Positions 7,104-58,165 of a stretch of DNA of 64,000 nucleotides are shown in pieces (positions within the stretch are counted from its first letter, which is position 1; each line of letters opens with the position of its first letter). The notes under the pieces are model-generated. The model ran no database searches. It was not told the DNA's origin and saw only the letters and a program-made list of their open reading frames with translations. Location: positions 58,114 through 122,113 of IMG/VR virus record IMGVR_UViG_3300035529_000070; one strand, given 5' to 3'. The position numbers and the translations under genes were made by a program. This DNA is from a virus.

Positions 7104-8567
7104 TCACTTATATATTGGTGTTAAATCATTCTTGGTTAATGTTTGAGCAGTTTTTAACGTAGTCATATTGTTAACAGGTAATTCTATGTTTTCCCCGCTA
7201 AAACTAGTCGCATCTATTAAGGTTGGAGTAGATATATTGGTTGTAGTGCCATCCCCAAGTTGCCCGACATGATTTCTACCCCAAGTATAGAGCTTGCCCG
7301 TCTCTGTTATGGCTGATGAGTGATATGTATTGTCAGACGAAGAATTCCAAAAACCTCCTAAACTAACAGCTACTATCTTCTCACCGCCAAAAGCATCTAT
7401 TAACGTTGGGGTAGGTCTGTTGGTTGTAGTGCCATCACCAATTTGGCCGTAATTATTAAAGCCCCAAGTATAGAGTTTGCCCGTTTCTGTTATGGCTGAG
7501 GAGTGATGCTGCCCTAAACTAACAGCTACTATCTTCTCTCCACCAAATGCGTCTATGAGGGTTGGAGTATTTCGTTGAGTTGTAGTACCATCACCTAGTT
7601 GACCTTGTGTATTATAGCCCCAAGTATAGAGTTTCCCCGTTTCCGTTATGGCTGAAGAATGATTGCCCCATAAACTAACAGCTACTATCTTCTCTCCACC
7701 AAATGCGTCTATGAGGGTTGGGGTATTTCGTTGAGTTGTAGTACCATCGCCAAGTTGGCCGTAATAATTATAGCCCCAAGTATAGAGTTTACCTGTTTCT
7801 GTTATGGCTGAAGTGTGATACGTTCCTAAACTAACAGATACTATCTTCTCGCCGCCAAATGAATCTATTAAGGTTGGAGTAGATATATTGGTTGTAGTGC
7901 CATCACCAATTTGGCCGTAATTATTAAAGCCCCAAGTATAGAGTTTGCCCGTTTCTGTTATGGCTGAGGAGTGATGCTGCCCTAAACTAACAGCTACTAT
8001 CTTCTCTCCACCAAATGCGTCTATGAGGGTTGGGGTATTTCGTTGAGTTGTAGTACCATCGCCAAGTTGGCCGTAATAATTATAGCCCCAAGTATAGAGT
8101 TTCCCCGTTTCCGTTATGGCTGAAGAATGATAATACCCTAAACTAACAGCTACTATCTTCTCGCCGCCAAATGAATCTATTAAGGTTGGAGTAGATATAT
8201 TGGTTGTAGTGCCATCACCAATTTGGCCGTAATTATTAAAGCCCCAAGTATAGAGTTTCCCCGTTTCTGTTATGGCTGAGGAGCTAGCATATGCTAAGCT
8301 AATAGTATAATTTTCACCGAATTTAGATTTTAAAACTCCCGAATCAACTATATCATTGAAAAATTTGATCTTTAAATTGTGTGTACCAATTGTTTTATTT
8401 TGCATCCTTACCCTAATCTTTTTTGTATCAGGATCAAAATCAAAAGGCACCTCATTATCCAATGAATCATATATTTTAAAATTACATCTTTTTCTACCTA
8501 AACTATCATATCCCATTACTGCGGGATTAAATGTTGCTCCCTCTGGAATGAAGATCTCTGTACCCAT
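7104..8567 (-). CDS. Seven-bladed RCC1/BLIP-II beta-propeller protein, candidate receptor-binding/adhesion protein
   Basis: Seven 52-aa repeats of SAITETGKLYTWGxNxxGQxGDGTTTxxxTPTLIDxFGGEKIVxVSLxxxH. Confidence 0.9.
   Translation of the reverse strand: MGTEIFIPEGATFNPAVMGYDSLGRKRCNFKIYDSLDNEVPFDFDPDTKKIRVRMQNKTIGTHNLKIKFFNDIVDSGVLKSKFGENYTISLAYASSSAITETGKLYTWGFNNYGQIGDGTTTNISTPTLIDSFGGEKIVAVSLGYYHSSAITETGKLYTWGYNYYGQLGDGTTTQRNTPTLIDAFGGEKIVAVSLGQHHSSAITETGKLYTWGFNNYGQIGDGTTTNISTPTLIDSFGGEKIVSVSLGTYHTSAITETGKLYTWGYNYYGQLGDGTTTQRNTPTLIDAFGGEKIVAVSLWGNHSSAITETGKLYTWGYNTQGQLGDGTTTQRNTPTLIDAFGGEKIVAVSLGQHHSSAITETGKLYTWGFNNYGQIGDGTTTNRPTPTLIDAFGGEKIVAVSLGGFWNSSSDNTYHSSAITETGKLYTWGRNHVGQLGDGTTTNISTPTLIDATSFSGENIELPVNNMTTLKTAQTLTKNDLTPIYK
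7210..8282 (-). repeat. About seven tandem 156-bp repeats, near-identical at DNA level
   Basis: TTATTAAAGC recurs at 7453, 7921 and 8233 (spacings 468 and 312 = multiples of 156); the last interval carries a 9-codon insertion. Confidence 0.95.
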
Positions 8568-8568
8568 G

Positions 8569-9324
8569 TTATACCACCTCTCCTAATGTTATTTCTACAT
8601 CTTCTCTGTATATATCAGAAGTTTTCTCTACATCAAATGAATATCCATCTATCATTTGTGTTGTTGTTGAATATGTGTCACCAGATATCTCTATACTTAC
8701 ATCGTCAAAGTTGTTATCTGGAACCGTTACTGTAAATTCATAACCAGAAATTAATTCGCTAGCATCTGTTTCCTGAATTGTTGATCTATTTTCAGGTAAA
8801 TCCGTGTTATCTAGCTCAAAAGTTTGCAAGGTAATAAATGCTCTATAATAATATCTATCCGTAGTATTAGCAAATACAACTTCATCTACATAAGCTAATG
8901 ATGCATATTTATTTAACTCTGCATTCCTAATAATAACGGTTCCATCTGAAATAGAAACAGGATAACTTCCTAATTTTCTTACTATTGTTGTATATCTCCA
9001 ATCTGGGCTTTGTGGATCTTGCCAGGTTAAATAGACTTTATCTTTGTTATAAGCATTTAAAGCTACGAAATTACTAACAGATAATCCTAAATTAACATCC
9101 GACTCTACTTCTGGAGCATCAATATAATTTACAGCACCATCTTTTTGTTGTACAACAATTTTCGTTGCCTCAACTTTTATATCATCGGCATTTGTTATAG
9201 GTAATTCCACAGGTTTATCTGGGTTGTATAAACTTATAACCTTCCCATCATTAGTTACCAATACACTGTTAACTATCTTTTTCGCATTGGAGATGTTTTC
9301 TATCTTTCTAAACCCTATCGCCAT
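8569..9324 (-). CDS. Tail-associated protein; N-terminus paralogous to 9326-9646
   Basis: Shared LVTNDGKVI...DDI segment. Confidence 0.65.
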   Translation of the reverse strand: MAIGFRKIENISNAKKIVNSVLVTNDGKVISLYNPDKPVELPITNADDIKVEATKIVVQQKDGAVNYIDAPEVESDVNLGLSVSNFVALNAYNKDKVYLTWQDPQSPDWRYTTIVRKLGSYPVSISDGTVIIRNAELNKYASLAYVDEVVFANTTDRYYYRAFITLQTFELDNTDLPENRSTIQETDASELISGYEFTVTVPDNNFDDVSIEISGDTYSTTTQMIDGYSFDVEKTSDIYREDVEITLGEVV

Positions 9325-9325
9325 T

Positions 9326-9646
9326 TTAAATCACCTCCATACTACCCAAATCTATAGAAATATAAATATTATTGCCTTCATTTGGTATATCATCAGGTAT
9401 ATTCAAATTAAATTCTAAACCAAGAAATTCTTTTTCTGGATTTTGAATAACCTCTTCTGTTTGTTCCTTTGTTTTTATTATTATCTTATCAGCTATAAAA
9501 GCTATATCGTCTACAGTTGGTATATCTAATTTCACAGTATTTGTAGGAGAAGATACTCTTATAACTTTTCCATCATTGGTAACTAGTTTATCCTTCTTCA
9601 ATTTTTTAACATTTTCTACGCCTATTATCTTCTCAAAACCAGCCAT
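9326..9646 (-). CDS. Small tail-associated protein
   Basis: Paralogue of the 8569-9324 N-terminus; C-terminus resembles the end of 10050-11174. Confidence 0.65.
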   Translation of the reverse strand: MAGFEKIIGVENVKKLKKDKLVTNDGKVIRVSSPTNTVKLDIPTVDDIAFIADKIIIKTKEQTEEVIQNPEKEFLGLEFNLNIPDDIPNEGNNIYISIDLGSMEVI

Positions 9647-9683
9647 TTATCATCACCGAATCGGTTGTAGGAAGCCTTTGCCT

Positions 9684-9791
9684 TTAGGCTTGGGAGGAAT
9701 ACAACCAATTCTCCCTCCTTTCAATATTATATTTAAACCCATCAATTTTTTGAATAAAAGGTTTATTATGTTTATCTAAAACAAATACCAT
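9684..9791 (-). pseudogene. iscB: Internally deleted iscB (35 codons)
   Basis: RBS AAGGAGG then MVFVLDKHNKP (start of the PLMP domain) fused in frame to FIQKIDGFKY.. (IscB-like C-terminus); RuvC/HNH absent. Confidence 0.8.
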
Positions 9792-9799
9792 AGGTTTTT

Positions 9800-10048
9800 A
9801 AACCTCCTTGCTCGTGTTGAGCAGTAATCTTGATATACATCAAGCCACATCGCCAATGTTATTTATGCTTTTTGCGTCAAGCACACTATTCATACCAACT
9901 TTAGAATTGTTTAATGCTAAACGACAGAGCATCAGACTTGTGGAGCATCCGAAGGTGTCATGACATAAATAACGTAGTCATTTAAGACTTAGGCTAGTCA
10001 ACTAAGTTGGCTTTTTCAAGTCAACTCCTTCAGGGGTTGGTAGTTGAC
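9800..10048 (-). ncRNA. omega-RNA (HEARO-type) scaffold of an IscB element; guide would be the adjacent 5' flank (about 10049-10068)
   Basis: Ordered blocks I recognise from IscB omega-RNAs: GTCAACTACC, GTTGACTAGCCTAAG, GACTACGTT, ATGACACC..GGATGC, CAAGTC..GCTCTGTCG, TAAACA, AACATTGGCGA. The 3' boundary is approximate. Confidence 0.85.
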
Positions 10049-10049
10049 C

Positions 10050-11174
10050 TCATTCGTTTGTAAAAGAATATAAATCTGCCTCTATGTAAACATCAGTTCC
10101 CTCTTGAGGAACATCGTTGGGTACATTGATAGTCATTTCGTATGCATAAAATTCTTCATAAGATTCAACTTGTTTTTCTCTCCCAGATACCCACACATTC
10201 CCTTCAACATCTATAACATATGTGACATCATTCTCCACATAAGCCCTTTTCATTGCAGGCAATACTGTAGGCGTAGATACTGGCAATTCATTATTGTTTT
10301 TTTTGAACTTCACATTATCAAAAGTTTCGTTTATTTCATCCCTTTTAGTTACCAACACATCCATTTTTGAGGTCTGTATATCAAAATAGTTCTCCAACAA
10401 AATATCTTCTGAGTATACAGGGCTTGCCATCAAAGTTTCTGATACCCTTTTAATTAAAGGAGAATTGAAATCTACGAATTTATTAATAACCAAAAAGAAA
10501 TCTTGCGTTGTATCTAAGGATACAGAATCATTAAACGTCGTTTGTTTATCTAAAAAGCTTGTATTGTTTAGTCCAGTTGTATTTTCTAATACCATAGGAT
10601 TATTCGAAAGATTTTTAACTTCTGGATCTATATTATTTGTTTCTGCATATCCTTCGAATGTATTTGTATAAGGCCCATATATAACAGCGAGCGTTTCAAA
10701 AAACCTTGAGTTTAAAACATCGGTAAGATACACTTTCTCTCTTTGATAAAATGGACAATTTTCATTGCATTTATTAGTTTTATAATATGAAGATCCTGCA
10801 GCACAATAATTGGTCTCCACGGAAGGGTTATATATGTTGTTTAAACAATGTGTATAATCCTTAGAATCATTTTCTAAAACGCCTTTTATTAATCCAGGTT
10901 CTTTTATATATCCATAGTCAGTATTAGGGGATTTATCCCATAACCTATCAAAAAAACTCGGTGGAACCCTTTTGTTTCTTGGCAGTACATTAACTGTTAC
11001 ATCACCAATTAATTTTAGTGATTCTAATCCCTTCATTTCTTTATTGAAAAAAACCCCGGAGAAATCACCGGGGTCACTGGTTAATATATGAATATCATCA
11101 TTATAATCTTTTATGCTTATATCTTTATTATCTTCTATAATAAGCAATTTATTGAGTAGTCTAGTCTGCATCAT
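10050..11174 (-). CDS. Tail-region protein with four-Cys motif and an RCC1-like fragment
   Basis: Paralogue of 4583-5170; TYVIDVEGNVWVSG is RCC1-like. Confidence 0.65.
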   Translation of the reverse strand: MMQTRLLNKLLIIEDNKDISIKDYNDDIHILTSDPGDFSGVFFNKEMKGLESLKLIGDVTVNVLPRNKRVPPSFFDRLWDKSPNTDYGYIKEPGLIKGVLENDSKDYTHCLNNIYNPSVETNYCAAGSSYYKTNKCNENCPFYQREKVYLTDVLNSRFFETLAVIYGPYTNTFEGYAETNNIDPEVKNLSNNPMVLENTTGLNNTSFLDKQTTFNDSVSLDTTQDFFLVINKFVDFNSPLIKRVSETLMASPVYSEDILLENYFDIQTSKMDVLVTKRDEINETFDNVKFKKNNNELPVSTPTVLPAMKRAYVENDVTYVIDVEGNVWVSGREKQVESYEEFYAYEMTINVPNDVPQEGTDVYIEADLYSFTNE

Positions 11175-14100
11175 CTAAATCGACCTCCAATATATTTTAA
11201 CAAATTGTCAGTTGGAGAGACGTTTAAAACAACTATGTCATCAGCTATGAGATAACCACTTGTATTATTACCTATTTTTAATGAATGTACTGTATCTGCT
11301 GGAATATATATCGTTTCATAAGTGAGAGTTTTTGGATTTAATATTTGTACATTATCTGAACTTATTTTAATTACTATATTTTGGAAATTCAAAGTATTCA
11401 TTCCAATAAACTCCCCAGAATCACTTAATATCAAATTCCCATCCATATCTATTTCAAAGATTTTTTTACCGCTGATAGTAACTAATTCAGATATAGAACT
11501 TATATTTCTTTCAACTAATCCTCCAGTAACAAAATCAACATCATCATCTGAATCATCGTATTCTAAAGTAATAGATAATCCTCTCATTTGTTCCACTGTG
11601 AGTTTATAATTAAAGAACATAAATTCATTCAATAATTCTTTAGGTGTTGACCATACAGGATCAACTACATCAAAAACATTACCACCAAATGATATTTTTT
11701 CATTACCTGTTAAAGCCATAGTATTACCTATATTATTCAAAAATGCTGAAATAGATTTTTCACCATCTAACACAGTAAACAAATTATCTGTAGCTGGTTC
11801 GTAATACAACCCTATAGCTCTTATTTTATATTTATCGTTTGATTCAAAAGGATGTGCATTACTTGAAAAACTTGCTACTCCAGAAGTTTCAGTCTGAACA
11901 TAACATTTAAATCCCGTAGATGTTGTATTAAATCTAATTTTATTTGATAAGCTAAATAATGTATGCTCGTTTGTATCCGTTGCCTTATGATATGTCCCTG
12001 CGTTAGTAAATATTGTAAATGTTTCACCTGTCCCTAATTCACTTAAAGCAAACTTCTTATCATACAACCCTGCTCTAACTATTTCAGAAACCTCTTGTGT
12101 TGTAAATCCATAATTATCTATCCCACCGGAATAATAAACATCAGATACTTTTGGTTTTACATACACCGAAGGAGATTTGGATAAATCCAATGTATAATCA
12201 GGGTCATATTCTATATTAAAAAATATTTCCGTGTCAGCTTGTGCTAGTGTGTAAGGATTATTATCATGATTCAAATTAACCAACCATTTAACGTGTTGAG
12301 CGTTAGGATCATACATTAATAGTATTACATCTAATACATTGCCATCTTTAGTAAATTTAATGTTGTTAATATCTCTGTTTGATAACACTGTTTGAGCCCA
12401 TACATTAGAATCTATTTCAACAGGTACCCAAAACTCTCCTGTATTCCCGACTCTTTCTTCTAAAAATTTCAATCTAAATATCTGCCTGCTCCCACCTAAA
12501 CCGGAACCAATTAAATCTAACAACACAGTTGCTCCTGTAGGAATGTTATTTATATTCAATATGTTATCATCAACTCTTACACCTTTTTTATCATACTGAG
12601 GTGTTTTAGGCATTGTAGCTGCTAATTGTAGATTTTCACTTTCCAATGAATTTTCGAATTTAAATCTATCTGAAGAATCTGTATTAATATTTGCGACAGA
12701 ATTTGATTCATCTGCAACATATTTAATTATATTAGTTCCAGGATTAATAGTGGCTGCAGGAACAAATATTTTTCTTTCATCAAACCATTGAATTACCCTG
12801 GCAGAAATATCCGCACCGTTAAGGTTCATAAGTATAGGCCTAGCTGTATCATCCAACCCTTGTTTTAGGTGTAAATCATCTATATTTAACAAAAGGTCAA
12901 CTGTTTCTGTTGAGTCTGTATCGTTATATACTGACCAACTTATATCACTGAAAGATTTATATTCTCTTACTATGGTTATATTATCTGTTTTTACACCTTG
13001 TTTTTCAACGACTTGGCCGTTATTTACAAACACAACCTCTTCATATAATTTAGCTATATTTGGGTTAAGAGTTAAATCTTCCAATGTATCTATATAACCT
13101 TTATTCAAAAATTCAGGCACCATTGTTTCTGGAACATGAACTATTTCAGTTCCATCCACGTCTTCCATGGTTATTTCAGAAGTTGAATCGAAGTAAATTT
13201 TTGTTTCTGTGCTATAAAGAGTAATATAATCTGAATAGTTTGAAGTAGAACGAAAAATAATATTTTTTGAAAAAAAATCATATTGATAAAATTTTATAAA
13301 GCTATTAAATGTTTTTATAGGCCAATAAGAAATATTATATGATTGATCTCGCCAATTTGGAGTATTAATTATATTTAACATCACGTTATATAAATTAAGT
13401 TCTCCTCCTCTTGACCATCTTACATTAGTATTTAACAGAATTGAATAAGGATATAACCCATAAATGTTTTTGTTTGAAACTAAATCTAGATAAGATAATG
13501 AATATTTCCCTGGCATTAATATCAAATTATCCCCGTTATCTTTAGCAGCTTCCAATGTCTTATAAGGATTTTCTTTAGAGCCATCACCGTTTGTGTCATC
13601 GCCATCAAATGCGTCCACGTACACTGTAGTTCCTTCCCACGAACCAGAAATTTTGGGATCTATTTTGACTTCAGGTATATGAACTACTTTAGATCCGTCA
13701 GATGAAAAATAATTTTCTCCATAATAAGGATTACCTTGATCATCTTTTACATACACTTGGTCAGAATAACCTTTTTCTAAAGATTGAATTTTAATCGGTT
13801 CGCTTATATCTATAGGTTCTGATTCTGCTATATAGTTTTCCTGATATATTGTTTTGCCAAAATACAAATCCACCATATAATCAGATTCGTGTTTAACTTT
13901 ACCAGCAAAATAAACGACATTCCCCTGAACATCTAATATATACAATTCATCAAAATCAATATTAAAATCTGAATTCAATATAGTATTATAATTTATATCA
14001 TTTTTTATATATCTATTCATCAATTCTTTATGACCATCTTCTATAAAAGTGGCTTGAACATCTGTATCTTCAAATAGATATCTAGGTATAGCGACATTAG

Positions 14101-17766: not shown

Positions 17767-20700
17767 TAAACATCACTTCCCATACTTCCATCCCAAACAT
17801 GTACTCTAAAATACAGTTTGTTTGCTGTCACTGGCGTTGATAAAGTATGTTTGAATCTCACATAATTTTCTCCATCGGCCGGAACCCCATTCACACCTTC
17901 TACACCTTCAATTCCTGGCTCTAGTCCCATAACTTGTTTCCATGTATATTTTTCAGGGGTAGTTCCTGGGGTATAGAATGTAGAATAACTAAATTTAGCA
18001 GGGTTGTATGTATAACCGTCAGAACTTCTAAATGGCTTTTTATCTTTTTCAAACGATTTAAATGCAATAAGTCTATCAGAAACTGAATAAGTTGGATCAT
18101 CGAAATCTTTTGTGGCTACTTCTATAGCAAAATGTTCTGTACCTTCTACTAAGTTTTCAGGAGCTAACCAAACAACATCTATATCTTGATCGCTTATAGG
18201 AGCACCTAAAGCTGGATAAACAAGCTCAGGCATTTTATATACATCCATCATATATAGATCAACTTTTCTCAATGTTGGATATTTACTAATAGAAGATTTA
18301 AAATCAAACTTCATTTGATAAACTAAATTATCAGATTCAAGGTTTTCAAATTCAGGCAATGCCCTTATATCAGCTGTATTTTCAACAGCAATCCATCCTC
18401 TAGTATTCCAAGTTCTACCATTATCAGAAGAATATCTAATAAAACTGCTTATATTAGAATCATATAACGGGATTCTTCCTTTAGGTTCATCTTTCACTAT
18501 AACCAAATCAAATAACTTAGAAGCTCTAGGTGGTTTAAATACAGGCGTAATAATAGAACTATTTATTTCTTTATCAGACTCAGCTTCAAATATTATGTTT
18601 GCTGATTCAAATCCCGGGAATGGGCCATTATTATCAGATACCAAATAAATCAATCCTAAATAGAAATTTTGTGGATCATCATAAAGGTTAAAAAAATCTG
18701 CCCATTCTTCATAAGTTATTTCCGAAGTTTCTATATTAGTATTAGAAGCAGTTTTAGTTTGGTTTGTTCCATACATGACTTCTACCCAAGTTCTGGTATC
18801 TGTATCTAAGTAATACCATCTTTTGTTATCAGCAGAGAAAATATATTTTATAGTATGAGCGACTATTCCATTAACTTCTTTAGATCTTGTACCTAAATAC
18901 ATTTGTTTTATCGATTTAAGTTGAGCTGCATTATATACTGCTTTATTTATTGTTTTAACATAAATAGCACCTTTGTTTTCATCTGTTTTTACAGCCATAG
19001 AATCAAGATTTATATTGTTTATCCTGATTTCACTATTATAATTTTTTATGAAAATTTTGTTTATTTTAACGTCTATAGACCATTTAGAAGAGTTTTCTAA
19101 ACCTGTATACACTTTTCCTATATTTTCAGTAGCTCCACTTCTAGGTAACTGCAACAATGTTTCATGAGTTTCAATTTGTGATTCTGTCGCCCCATCTGGG
19201 GTATAAACAATATTATGAGTATAAATTACTTCAGCGATGCTCTCGTTTGTAAATGTCATTGGTTCTTCTACAGCCGTCATGTTATACCAATATCTGGCCC
19301 TCCACTGCGTATAATAAACGTTTCCATCTATATCTGACCATGTAACTCCTGAATTAAATCTTCCTATCAAAGCTTTTTGAGAATCATTATTTTTGAGAAT
19401 CATTGATTTCATTCTAGTAATTTTAGGCTCTATATCTCCAAATTTAAAACCTGTATAAGATTTGTAATTGAATTCTCCAGTTATTATATCTTTATGATTG
19501 AAATGCAACTCAAACTGTTTTTCGGGCGGTAAAGTTTCAACAGTATACAATTCATTAGCATTTTCAAATTCCACTTGATATCCCGGGTACCCAAAATCAG
19601 GTTTCGGAACGCTATAAGAGCGACCATATACTCTACTATCTTGAGTAAATGTTTGTTCTCCAGACACTTCGTGATCTCCAAACAAAACATGTGTAGCATC
19701 AAACGACATTTTAGACACAGGGATTTCTCTTTGGAATTCAAATTTATATGCAGAATTAGGATCAAGTTGTAACATAGGATTCCCACTTGCATCATCTACT
19801 GTATGTTGCGTAATAAATTCGTCGGCAGTCATTATAACAACTGTTGAATCATTAGCAAAATCAACATTAGTTACTGACCCTATTAAATTAGTTGTATCTA
19901 TTTTATAAACTCTAGCAATCAGACTTCTAATTTCAGGAGAAGTTAGACCAAAGTTTTCTACATTTATAGGGGTAGCTTCGACTTCCATATTAGTCCTAAC
20001 TATTGTTTCATTACTTAAATTAAGAATATTGTTCCAACCAGCCTCCATTGTTGGTTCTATAGTTCTTAAATGAGAATTGATTGGATCTTCTCCTAACACT
20101 TCCATATTTCTTGCAAATCCATTTGATAGAAATTCTCCCATTCTATCAGCAAGAACTTCAATAGGTATACTTTTTAACACTAATGAAGTATCTCCAGCTG
20201 TACCAGATATATTCACCAATTGAAAATTAGAACTATCTGCTGGATAAGATATTTCAAAATCATTCATATCTAGAGGAAATTTAGCATTCAACATTCCAAA
20301 TGTATCATCCATTATTACACCAGAAGGTTTTTGTTCTAACTTATTATCAAAAACAAATCCTTCATGTCCTTCGTACAAAGAAGCTGATTCCGGATTAAAG
20401 TTCAATGAACCTCTCCAAAATTCATTTTCTTTAATAAATATTGGGTCCAATGTTCTATCTGGTGCTGGCACATTATGTGGATTTGTCATTAACGATTCAT
20501 TTGTAAAACTTGTTAATTTAGCATAATACATAATAGTTGTACCAGGATCTACTCCAAATCCTTTATCTTCATAAACGTAAGTATCCATAATGTATGTCAT
20601 TTGATTAACAGATGGATCTATAGGTTCAGTTTCTAAAATGTTTATTTGAGTTGGATCAATTGTTATAATTTGGCTTTCATAATTTACCGATAACACCTTT

Positions 20701-58056: not shown

Positions 58057-58165
58057 TGATTTAATAGATAAAATAAAGTATAATTTAATCTATCCTAAAG
58101 TTCAATACTACGGGGATGGATTTTCCATTAAAGCCAAAAATGGATATGTAAGATATTTTATGTGA
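57944..58165 (+). CDS. Small hypothetical protein overlapping the previous gene
   Basis: ATG at 57944 after AGGGAGGAG. Confidence 0.5.
   Translation: MLLEIKIDKGNQKETIYMDDQKIIVRGTIQKEIPKDIDDLIDKIKYNLIYPKVQYYGDGFSIKAKNGYVRYFM

Follow-up and report, generated by a model that had tools for sequence, protein, structure and literature searches.

Omega RNAs that stand alone, with neither an effector nor a transposase gene beside them, have been described in genomes that also hold effector-bearing loci, where they act in trans with compatible effectors (PMC10691335, PMC9581776), and their natural role has been called unknown (PMC10691335). Also related are PATE-like minimal IS200/605 elements, which encode omega RNAs and rely on the proteins of other elements (Meers et al. 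2023, 10.1101/2023.03.14.532601). According to the same work, the end of the transposon that encodes the IscB omega RNA is by the usual convention its right end, the guide sits 5' of the scaffold and outside that end, and read-through from a co-oriented upstream gene is needed for the RNA to be made. The locus considered here lies in a stretch of 64,000 nucleotides (the window, positions 58,114 to 122,113) of the phage record IMGVR_UViG_3300035529_000070, which has 183,532 bp, an estimated completeness of 82% and the standard genetic code. Between the stop codon of a gene for a 374-aa protein and the ribosome site of a gene for a 106-aa protein, the window carries an element of 392 bp (9657-10048). 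Judged from its sequence, this is a non-autonomous, internally deleted IscB-type IS200/IS605 (ISC) element or, in other words, an omega-RNA-only mini-transposon. A preliminary description, made from the letters of the window, had proposed an orphan omega RNA at this place and had stated that standalone omega RNAs are known, as the two sources cited first indeed report.

The omega-RNA scaffold, its guide and the element ends

The scaffold is recognised by its covariance model and by the conservation of its fold. When the 64-kb window was scanned with cmscan, HEARO (RF02033) was the single family above its gathering score, with 152.1 bits against a threshold of 83 (E 5e-32), and this match is the sole HEARO copy in the 183.5-kb record. 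The preliminary description had called the scaffold apparently complete and had proposed an Infernal scan as a check; the full length of the model is matched, well above the cut-off. A consensus structure of 54 pairs was derived with RNAalifold from eight copies, namely that of the window, one in a 1.5-kb JGI metagenome contig (Ga0194138_10068492, hereafter L075) and six in a 185-kb IMG/VR phage that is syntenic with the window phage (IMGVR_UViG_3300034684_000299, hereafter G001). Compensatory changes are found in 29 of these 54 pairs. The window scaffold, which is about 94% identical to that of L075, retains 50 of the pairs, and the copies whose iscB is intact or long retain 50 to 52.

Conservation continues beyond the end of the Rfam model. 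RF02033 omits downstream structural elements (Meers et al., 10.1101/2023.03.14.532601), and the 47 nt that separate the model end from the iscB start in the window are conserved relative to L075. More specifically, the hairpin CTTGAT...ATCAAG / CTCGA...TCGAG of this 3' extension shows a compensatory change between the window copy and L075. The iscB remnant follows the HEARO match directly and in the same orientation; the linkage of RNA and gene is therefore present, with the gene no longer intact.

The 5' end of the scaffold coincides with the right end of the transposon, where the plus strand reads ...CAACTCCTTCAGGGGTTGGTAGTTGAC up to the junction. Because each HEARO copy examined begins with GTCAAC directly after unrelated flanking sequence, and because other flanks attach at 10049-10051, the boundary of the element on the RNA side is placed at the scaffold start; on the opposite side, other flanks attach at 9652. 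DNA folds of 9649-9722 and 9985-10056 (plus strand) reveal subterminal hairpins at both ends on one and the same strand. Over its 32-nt core, the left end shares about 90% identity with the hairpin that precedes tnpA at the left end of an IS605 element in the same phage. IS605 copies of Paenibacillus profundus, Cohnella soli, Lysinibacillus and Metalysinibacillus (Bacillota) match this core as well. Thus, the end motif that had been described as intact-looking does fold, over 9657-9722, and does resemble IS605 left ends. The unit of iscB and omega RNA thus runs antisense to the tnpA orientation, in keeping with what the geometry of the 3' target-adjacent motif (TAM) demands. The two junctions share no direct repeat, and there is no target-site duplication.

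With the element taken out, the flanks join ...ACGAATGAG to GTGATGATAAATG, which together give a stop codon, a GAGGTGA ribosome site and an ATG. The ribosome site of the 106-aa gene also survives the insertion as GGTGA (TCGGTGATGATAAATG, compared with GAGGTGATGATAAATG in the joined flanks). The preliminary description had held that excision restores the joined flanks, and the reconstructed sequence is as written there; the natural empty site that would complete this claim was not found, as detailed below.

IscB guides are about 16 nt long. The guide had been expected in the flank 5' of the scaffold, and this flank proves to be the final bases of the 374-aa gene, the TGA stop of which (10052-10050) lies 1 nt ahead of the scaffold. 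No dedicated promoter was found, promoter-like sites being rarer than in shuffled sequence. Since the element has no promoter of its own and the upstream stop comes 1 nt before the scaffold, the RNA would be made only by read-through. A search of the phage record for a second target of the guide found none with two or fewer mismatches. The reconstructed target is followed by GTGA, in agreement with the putative TAM of the preliminary description. The same motif, read as TCAC ahead of the left end, was seen in three instances only: in the window, in another copy (ATCAC, at a branch at 9652) and in the full-length element e20 of G001, the end of which reads ...AATT followed by TGTGAAAA. The guide and its expected target are in this way predicted to the base.

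The iscB remnant and its relatives

The remnant translates as MVFVLDKHNKPFIQKIDGFKYNIERRENWLYSSQA and consists of the first 11-12 and the last 23 codons of iscB, the gene of a Cas9-like nuclease, with about 1.2 kb gone between them. Over 11 residues it begins exactly as the L075 iscB does (MVFVLDKHNKPLAPCHPAKARK...). Its tail can be aligned with positions 401-421 of an IscB of 426 aa in G001 and fits the C-terminal motif ...QRFDGYSYRKE..., which is common in 120 homologues. The 35-aa frame as a whole has no Pfam match; its agreement with both IscB termini bears out the earlier statement that iscB had been cut to 35 in-frame codons. In Logan contigs from four oil-field/subsurface metagenome runs, other copies diverge from the window at 9757 in both directions, the branches reading ...KPLAPCHPAKAR and ...GINYKYCQ + IIQKIDGFKY. 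Because these branches into full-length sequence start at 9757, the deletion junction is placed at 9756/9757, in a TT microhomology. The termini and the junction together show the remnant to be what an internal, in-frame deletion of about 1.2 kb would leave of an element of about 1.6 kb.

Supporting the reality of this junction, it is bridged by unitigs of runs X3 and X5 near the depth of the phage itself (8.9 versus 6.9 and 8.0 versus 6.65) and by the JGI/Logan contigs L076-L080 and L083. The order of 374-aa gene, mini-element and 106-aa gene is identical in JGI and Logan contigs of up to 118 kb from several samples. Because the same site and the same arrangement recur in independent contigs and in unitigs of four runs, the mini-element is real and no error of assembly.

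All or part of the locus occurs in 20 sequencing runs, most of them from oil-field/subsurface metagenomes and a few from wastewater or soil; no RNA run was found to contain it. In four of these runs the word depth within 9652-10077 reaches 3-8 times that of the flanks, and some of their unitigs match the window scaffold at 100% identity. From this extra depth and these identical unitigs it follows that near-identical copies, including full-length ones, co-occur with the phage. Other flanks were found in the metagenome runs for at least four right ends and for one left end. These metagenomes also contain an iscB of full length that follows the same scaffold and agrees exactly with the remnant in its N-terminal coding sequence, its C-terminal part reading ...GINYKYCQIIQKIDGFKYNIE...; in L075, iscB is open for all 135 codons in the contig, the RRxRR region included. 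The flank of L075 (1-868) is a single open frame (289 residues) solely under a code in which its 12 TAG codons specify a residue. Because this flank needs TAG as a residue and the phage uses the standard code, the L075 sibling resides in a genome other than that of the phage; this genome seems to be TAG-recoded and is perhaps another phage. Further searches for relatives were less productive. A 36-mer of the scaffold led to one metagenome contig (L075) and to no viral contig, a degenerate back-translation of the iscB start had no match in IMG/VR, and when the G001 IscB served as a protein query, all matches were closer to that protein (at least 66% identity), the cognate of the remnant not being among them.

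The syntenic phage G001 carries six HEARO matches of 146-163 bits. A complete IscB open reading frame (426, 430 and about 450 aa) follows three of the six, two of which belong to the same gene block. Behind a fourth, iscB is truncated by the end of the contig, and the remaining two are without iscB. One of these iscB-less copies is directly followed by a tnpB element, and both contain the hairpin CTCTCCAAT..ATTGGAGAG, in opposite orientations. Because G001 possesses iscB-less copies as well, the nuclease has been lost and the RNA kept more than once in this phage lineage. An estimate by sequence pattern of how frequent such orphans are in phage contigs was dropped, several of the pattern matches being below the HEARO threshold.

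The preliminary description had also proposed a search for tnpA, and this search succeeded: elsewhere in the same phage, outside the window (G000:C1, ~177,900-179,700), there is a complete IS605 element with similar end hairpins that encodes a 138-aa Y1 TnpA (179138-179497) and a 389-aa TnpB. By comparison with G001, which has one tnpA-tnpB IS605 that is 79% identical to it, the left flank of this element was placed at ...TTTTTAC and its right end at ...GTAGTTCAC. The right ends of the IS605 and of the mini-element are alike (...GGGTTTGTGTAGTTCAC and ...GGGGTTGGTAGTTGAC, respectively).

Several side observations concern further copies. Two short contigs, L079 and L080, hold the same mini-element and 106-aa neighbour as window 9317-10051 with other flanks at the right end. 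In its 5' part their scaffold resembles that of L075, which points either to genuine recombination between copies or to chimeric assembly at the repeat. In L079 (Ga0376502_025401, 560-1030) the right end of the mini-element adjoins a tRNA-like gene split by a group I intron (RF00028, 70 bits, 612-979); the 5' half reads ...GGGGGCGTAGCTCAACGG... and the 3' end ...GGTTCAAATCCCATCGTCTCCACCA, and the gene was not called by ARAGORN. In run X4, a contig of depth 43 skips 145 nt inside the scaffold (window 9799-9945, shorter side 25 nt); a copy elsewhere that has lost part of its scaffold, or an artefact of the repeat, may account for this. A second haplotype in X4 carries the element at the same site and differs in 9374-9608 and 10080-10233, mostly at third-codon positions; the divergence is patchy, lies within about 400 nt on each side and gives way to near identity farther out. 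A co-conversion tract, considered for X4 because of 48 nt and 31 nt of identical sequence by the element, was rejected, as the differences come in patches, about 97 nt inside the diverged part being free of them, and the identity is not significant.

Gene neighbourhood and feature coordinates

The minus strand across this region of the large oil-field phage is a long run of large co-directional open reading frames, few of which have family matches. These matches include one weak PHROG 'tail protein' match and two RCC1-repeat proteins. The label 'tail operon', given to this block in the preliminary description, is thus plausible but weakly supported, its basis being the one weak PHROG match and the RCC1-repeat neighbours. 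The 374-aa protein is 50% identical to its homologue in G001. A search for related loci with this protein found nothing in IMG/VR or in JGI metagenomes, and among GenBank phages megablast and blastn searches with the locus found no relative; the one match was a short stretch of Clostridium phage c-st that resembles HEARO. Within the 5' part of the 374-aa coding sequence there is a strong hairpin resembling an intrinsic terminator (window 11052-11075, minus strand), with 8 pairs, 6 of them G-C, and then a T run. One of the RCC1-repeat proteins has 487 aa in the window (7104-8567) and 546 aa in a contig that is otherwise 99.9% identical (L076, 5080-6720), so that the number of RCC1 repeats differs among close phage relatives. 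The coordinates of the features are collected in Table 1.

Table 1. Features of the mini-element, its neighbours and the compared elements (positions refer to the window unless another locus is named).
Feature	Position	Strand	Basis or remark
Downstream neighbour gene, 106 aa	9326..9646	-	ATG at 9646; no family match
TCAC target motif directly 5' of the left end; on the RNA strand, predicted 3' TAM GTGA(T) of the reconstructed empty site	9653..9656	+	sequence
Transposon left end, imperfect palindrome CCTTTGCC-TTTA-GGCTTGGG inside a GGTTGTA/TACAACC stem	9657..9722	+ (TnpA top strand)	DNA fold
iscB remnant, 35 codons and stop, in-frame fusion of N- and C-terminal parts	9684..9791	-	ATG at 9791
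3' extension of the omega RNA outside the Rfam model, two small hairpins and iscB ribosome-binding site AAGGAGG	9792..9838	-	L075 alignment
Omega-RNA scaffold (HEARO, RF02033)	9839..10048	-	Rfam model 1-211 of 211
Flank encoding the guide, beyond the element boundary; final ~20 nt of the 374-aa gene with its TGA stop, reads ...UUCUUUUACAAACGAAUGAG	10049..10068	-	sequence
Upstream neighbour gene, 374 aa	10050..11174	-	no family match; same orientation as the omega RNA
IS605 tnpA-tnpB	locus L002 308-2050	-	comparison with the G001 copy
G001 HEARO copies	441-666; 11969-12187; 20240-20448; 103006-103234; 131324-131548; 151340-151549		HEARO matches of 146-163 bits

Origin of the orphan RNA and comparison with known systems

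Taken together, the element is probably young and structurally competent, a trans-dependent member of a family that is active. It began as a full-length copy of about 1.6 kb, located 3' of TCAC between the two co-directional phage genes; a deletion of about 1.2 kb at the TT microhomology then cut iscB down to 35 in-frame codons and spared the scaffold and both hairpin ends. Following the published rules, the RNA would be made by read-through from the co-oriented upstream gene, and its guide, the last ~16-20 nt of that gene, would match only the element-free allele, next to GTGA. The occupied site would be protected, since there the scaffold takes the place of the TAM. An IscB supplied in trans by a full-length sibling with the same scaffold would cut empty sites, resulting either in retention of the element or in homing by repair from an occupied copy, and such trans-guided homing is plausible. 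Movement would require a Y1 TnpA, and the IS605 of the phage, with its similar end hairpins, encodes one.

Several results weigh against this reading. Neither Pfam RRXRR nor tblastn with nine IscBs found an IscB in the phage record, which is 82% complete. The search for a full iscB that the preliminary description had proposed succeeded for siblings and not for the phage itself; full-length siblings were seen only in the same metagenomes, and L075 resides in a TAG-recoded genome. The resident IS605 is inserted behind TTAC and has TCAC as its terminal motif; for the mini-element the two motifs are TCAC and TGAC, respectively. Because these target and end motifs differ, mobilisation by the resident TnpA is uncertain. 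The joint 9656/10049 was not found in four metagenome runs, an exact 23-mer of the joined flanks was not found in IMG/VR, and exact-protein look-ups of the 106-, 374- and 251-aa neighbours returned occupied sites only. Wherever a contig has one of the two neighbouring genes it has the element too, and the insertion looks fixed. Because no element-free allele occurs among the contigs and runs examined, no natural target of the guide is known.

Some of these results are also what a passive relic would produce, that is, an element killed by its deletion, whose RNA, if made, is a degraded operon transcript, for which nothing supplies IscB or TnpA and whose presence is neutral to the phage. The missing IscB and the fixed insertion with no empty site seen are both as expected of such a relic, as are the upstream stop that has been kept and the GGTGA that precedes the ATG in the joined and the interrupted junction alike. 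Against it, the scaffold and both ends are undecayed in comparison with copies that have an intact iscB, identical scaffolds are present at higher depth in the same samples, and a tnpA with similar end hairpins is found in the same phage. Undecayed parts, extra copies and the tnpA would be expected of a young element no less than of a working one and therefore only weaken this alternative, which is on balance rather unlikely; should the RNA be inactive, the locus would simply be a decaying insertion. That the 35-codon iscB is instead a repeat collapse during assembly, the real phage having a full-length element or none, is hardly credible. The element is a multi-copy repeat in these samples, and L079 and L080, possibly chimeric, do join it to other right-end flanks; the bridging of the junction near phage depth in X3 and X5 and the identical arrangement in long JGI and Logan contigs of different samples nevertheless largely refute an artefact.

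Two further possibilities give the RNA an active part in contests between phages. One is that the nuclease-less element acts as a hyper-parasite and spreads between co-infecting phages on IscB borrowed from siblings in the host or in other phages. Element-free alleles of the gene junction would then be cut and the element copied in by repair, and the patchy divergence in X4, about 400 nt to each side, would be a conversion scar; this is improbable. The other, the stronger form of the idea in the preliminary description, is that the phage keeps the RNA because it recruits the IscB of its host or of a co-infecting relative to destroy or convert competitor phages that lack the insertion. The geometry of guide and TAM is correct for an element-free allele, the RNA runs in the same direction as a long series of large genes, and the second haplotype of X4, with the element at the same site and divergence nearby, is a weak hint of element-centred recombination. 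A competitor allele without the insertion is not known and no source of IscB was found, the X4 divergence is patchy, with gaps of about 100 nt, and the identity beside the element is not significant. The two orphans of G001, moreover, have other ends and other sites, which looks like recurrent decay rather than selection, and nothing separates a benefit to the phage from a benefit to the element. Such recruitment is thus very improbable, and we read the element not as a domesticated phage weapon, preferring the young, trans-dependent mini-transposon set out above. With its undamaged scaffold and ends and a guide and target defined to the base, the locus could be used to ask if guide elements that lack a nuclease persist by borrowing IscB, and if elements of the IS200/605 type home from one phage to another.

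The window locus is an orphan guide RNA of an already known type and adds no new principle. With the standalone omega RNAs of Altae-Tran et al. 2021, as summarised in PMC10691335 and PMC9581776, it shares a flank-derived guide, the absence of an effector and a transposase in cis, and effector-bearing relatives. In those accounts orphan and effector occur in one bacterial genome, whereas here the orphan is in a phage record in which no IscB was found, and its IscB-bearing siblings are found only in the same metagenomes. The window copy also displays the origin of the orphan, an in-frame internal deletion with 35 codons left.

The PATE-like and non-autonomous IscB elements of Geobacillus stearothermophilus (Meers et al., 10.1101/2023.03.14.532601) resemble the window element in having both hairpin ends and no functional protein gene, in having ends like those of a tnpA element in the same genome, in using the scaffold as the right end and in their co-orientation with an upstream gene. 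The published PATEs with omega RNAs are discussed for TnpB, whereas the RNA of the window element is of the IscB type (HEARO) and is located in a phage. In a further departure from those elements, the resident tnpA is paired with tnpB and uses TTAC where the mini-element uses TCAC. When compared with the HEARO RNA itself (RF02033), the window copy matches the full length of the family and occupies its typical place upstream of an open reading frame for IscB, an HNH endonuclease, with the difference that this frame is here only 35 codons long. What sets the locus apart among these systems is its phage setting, a deletion history that can still be read and a prediction of guide and target that is precise to the base.

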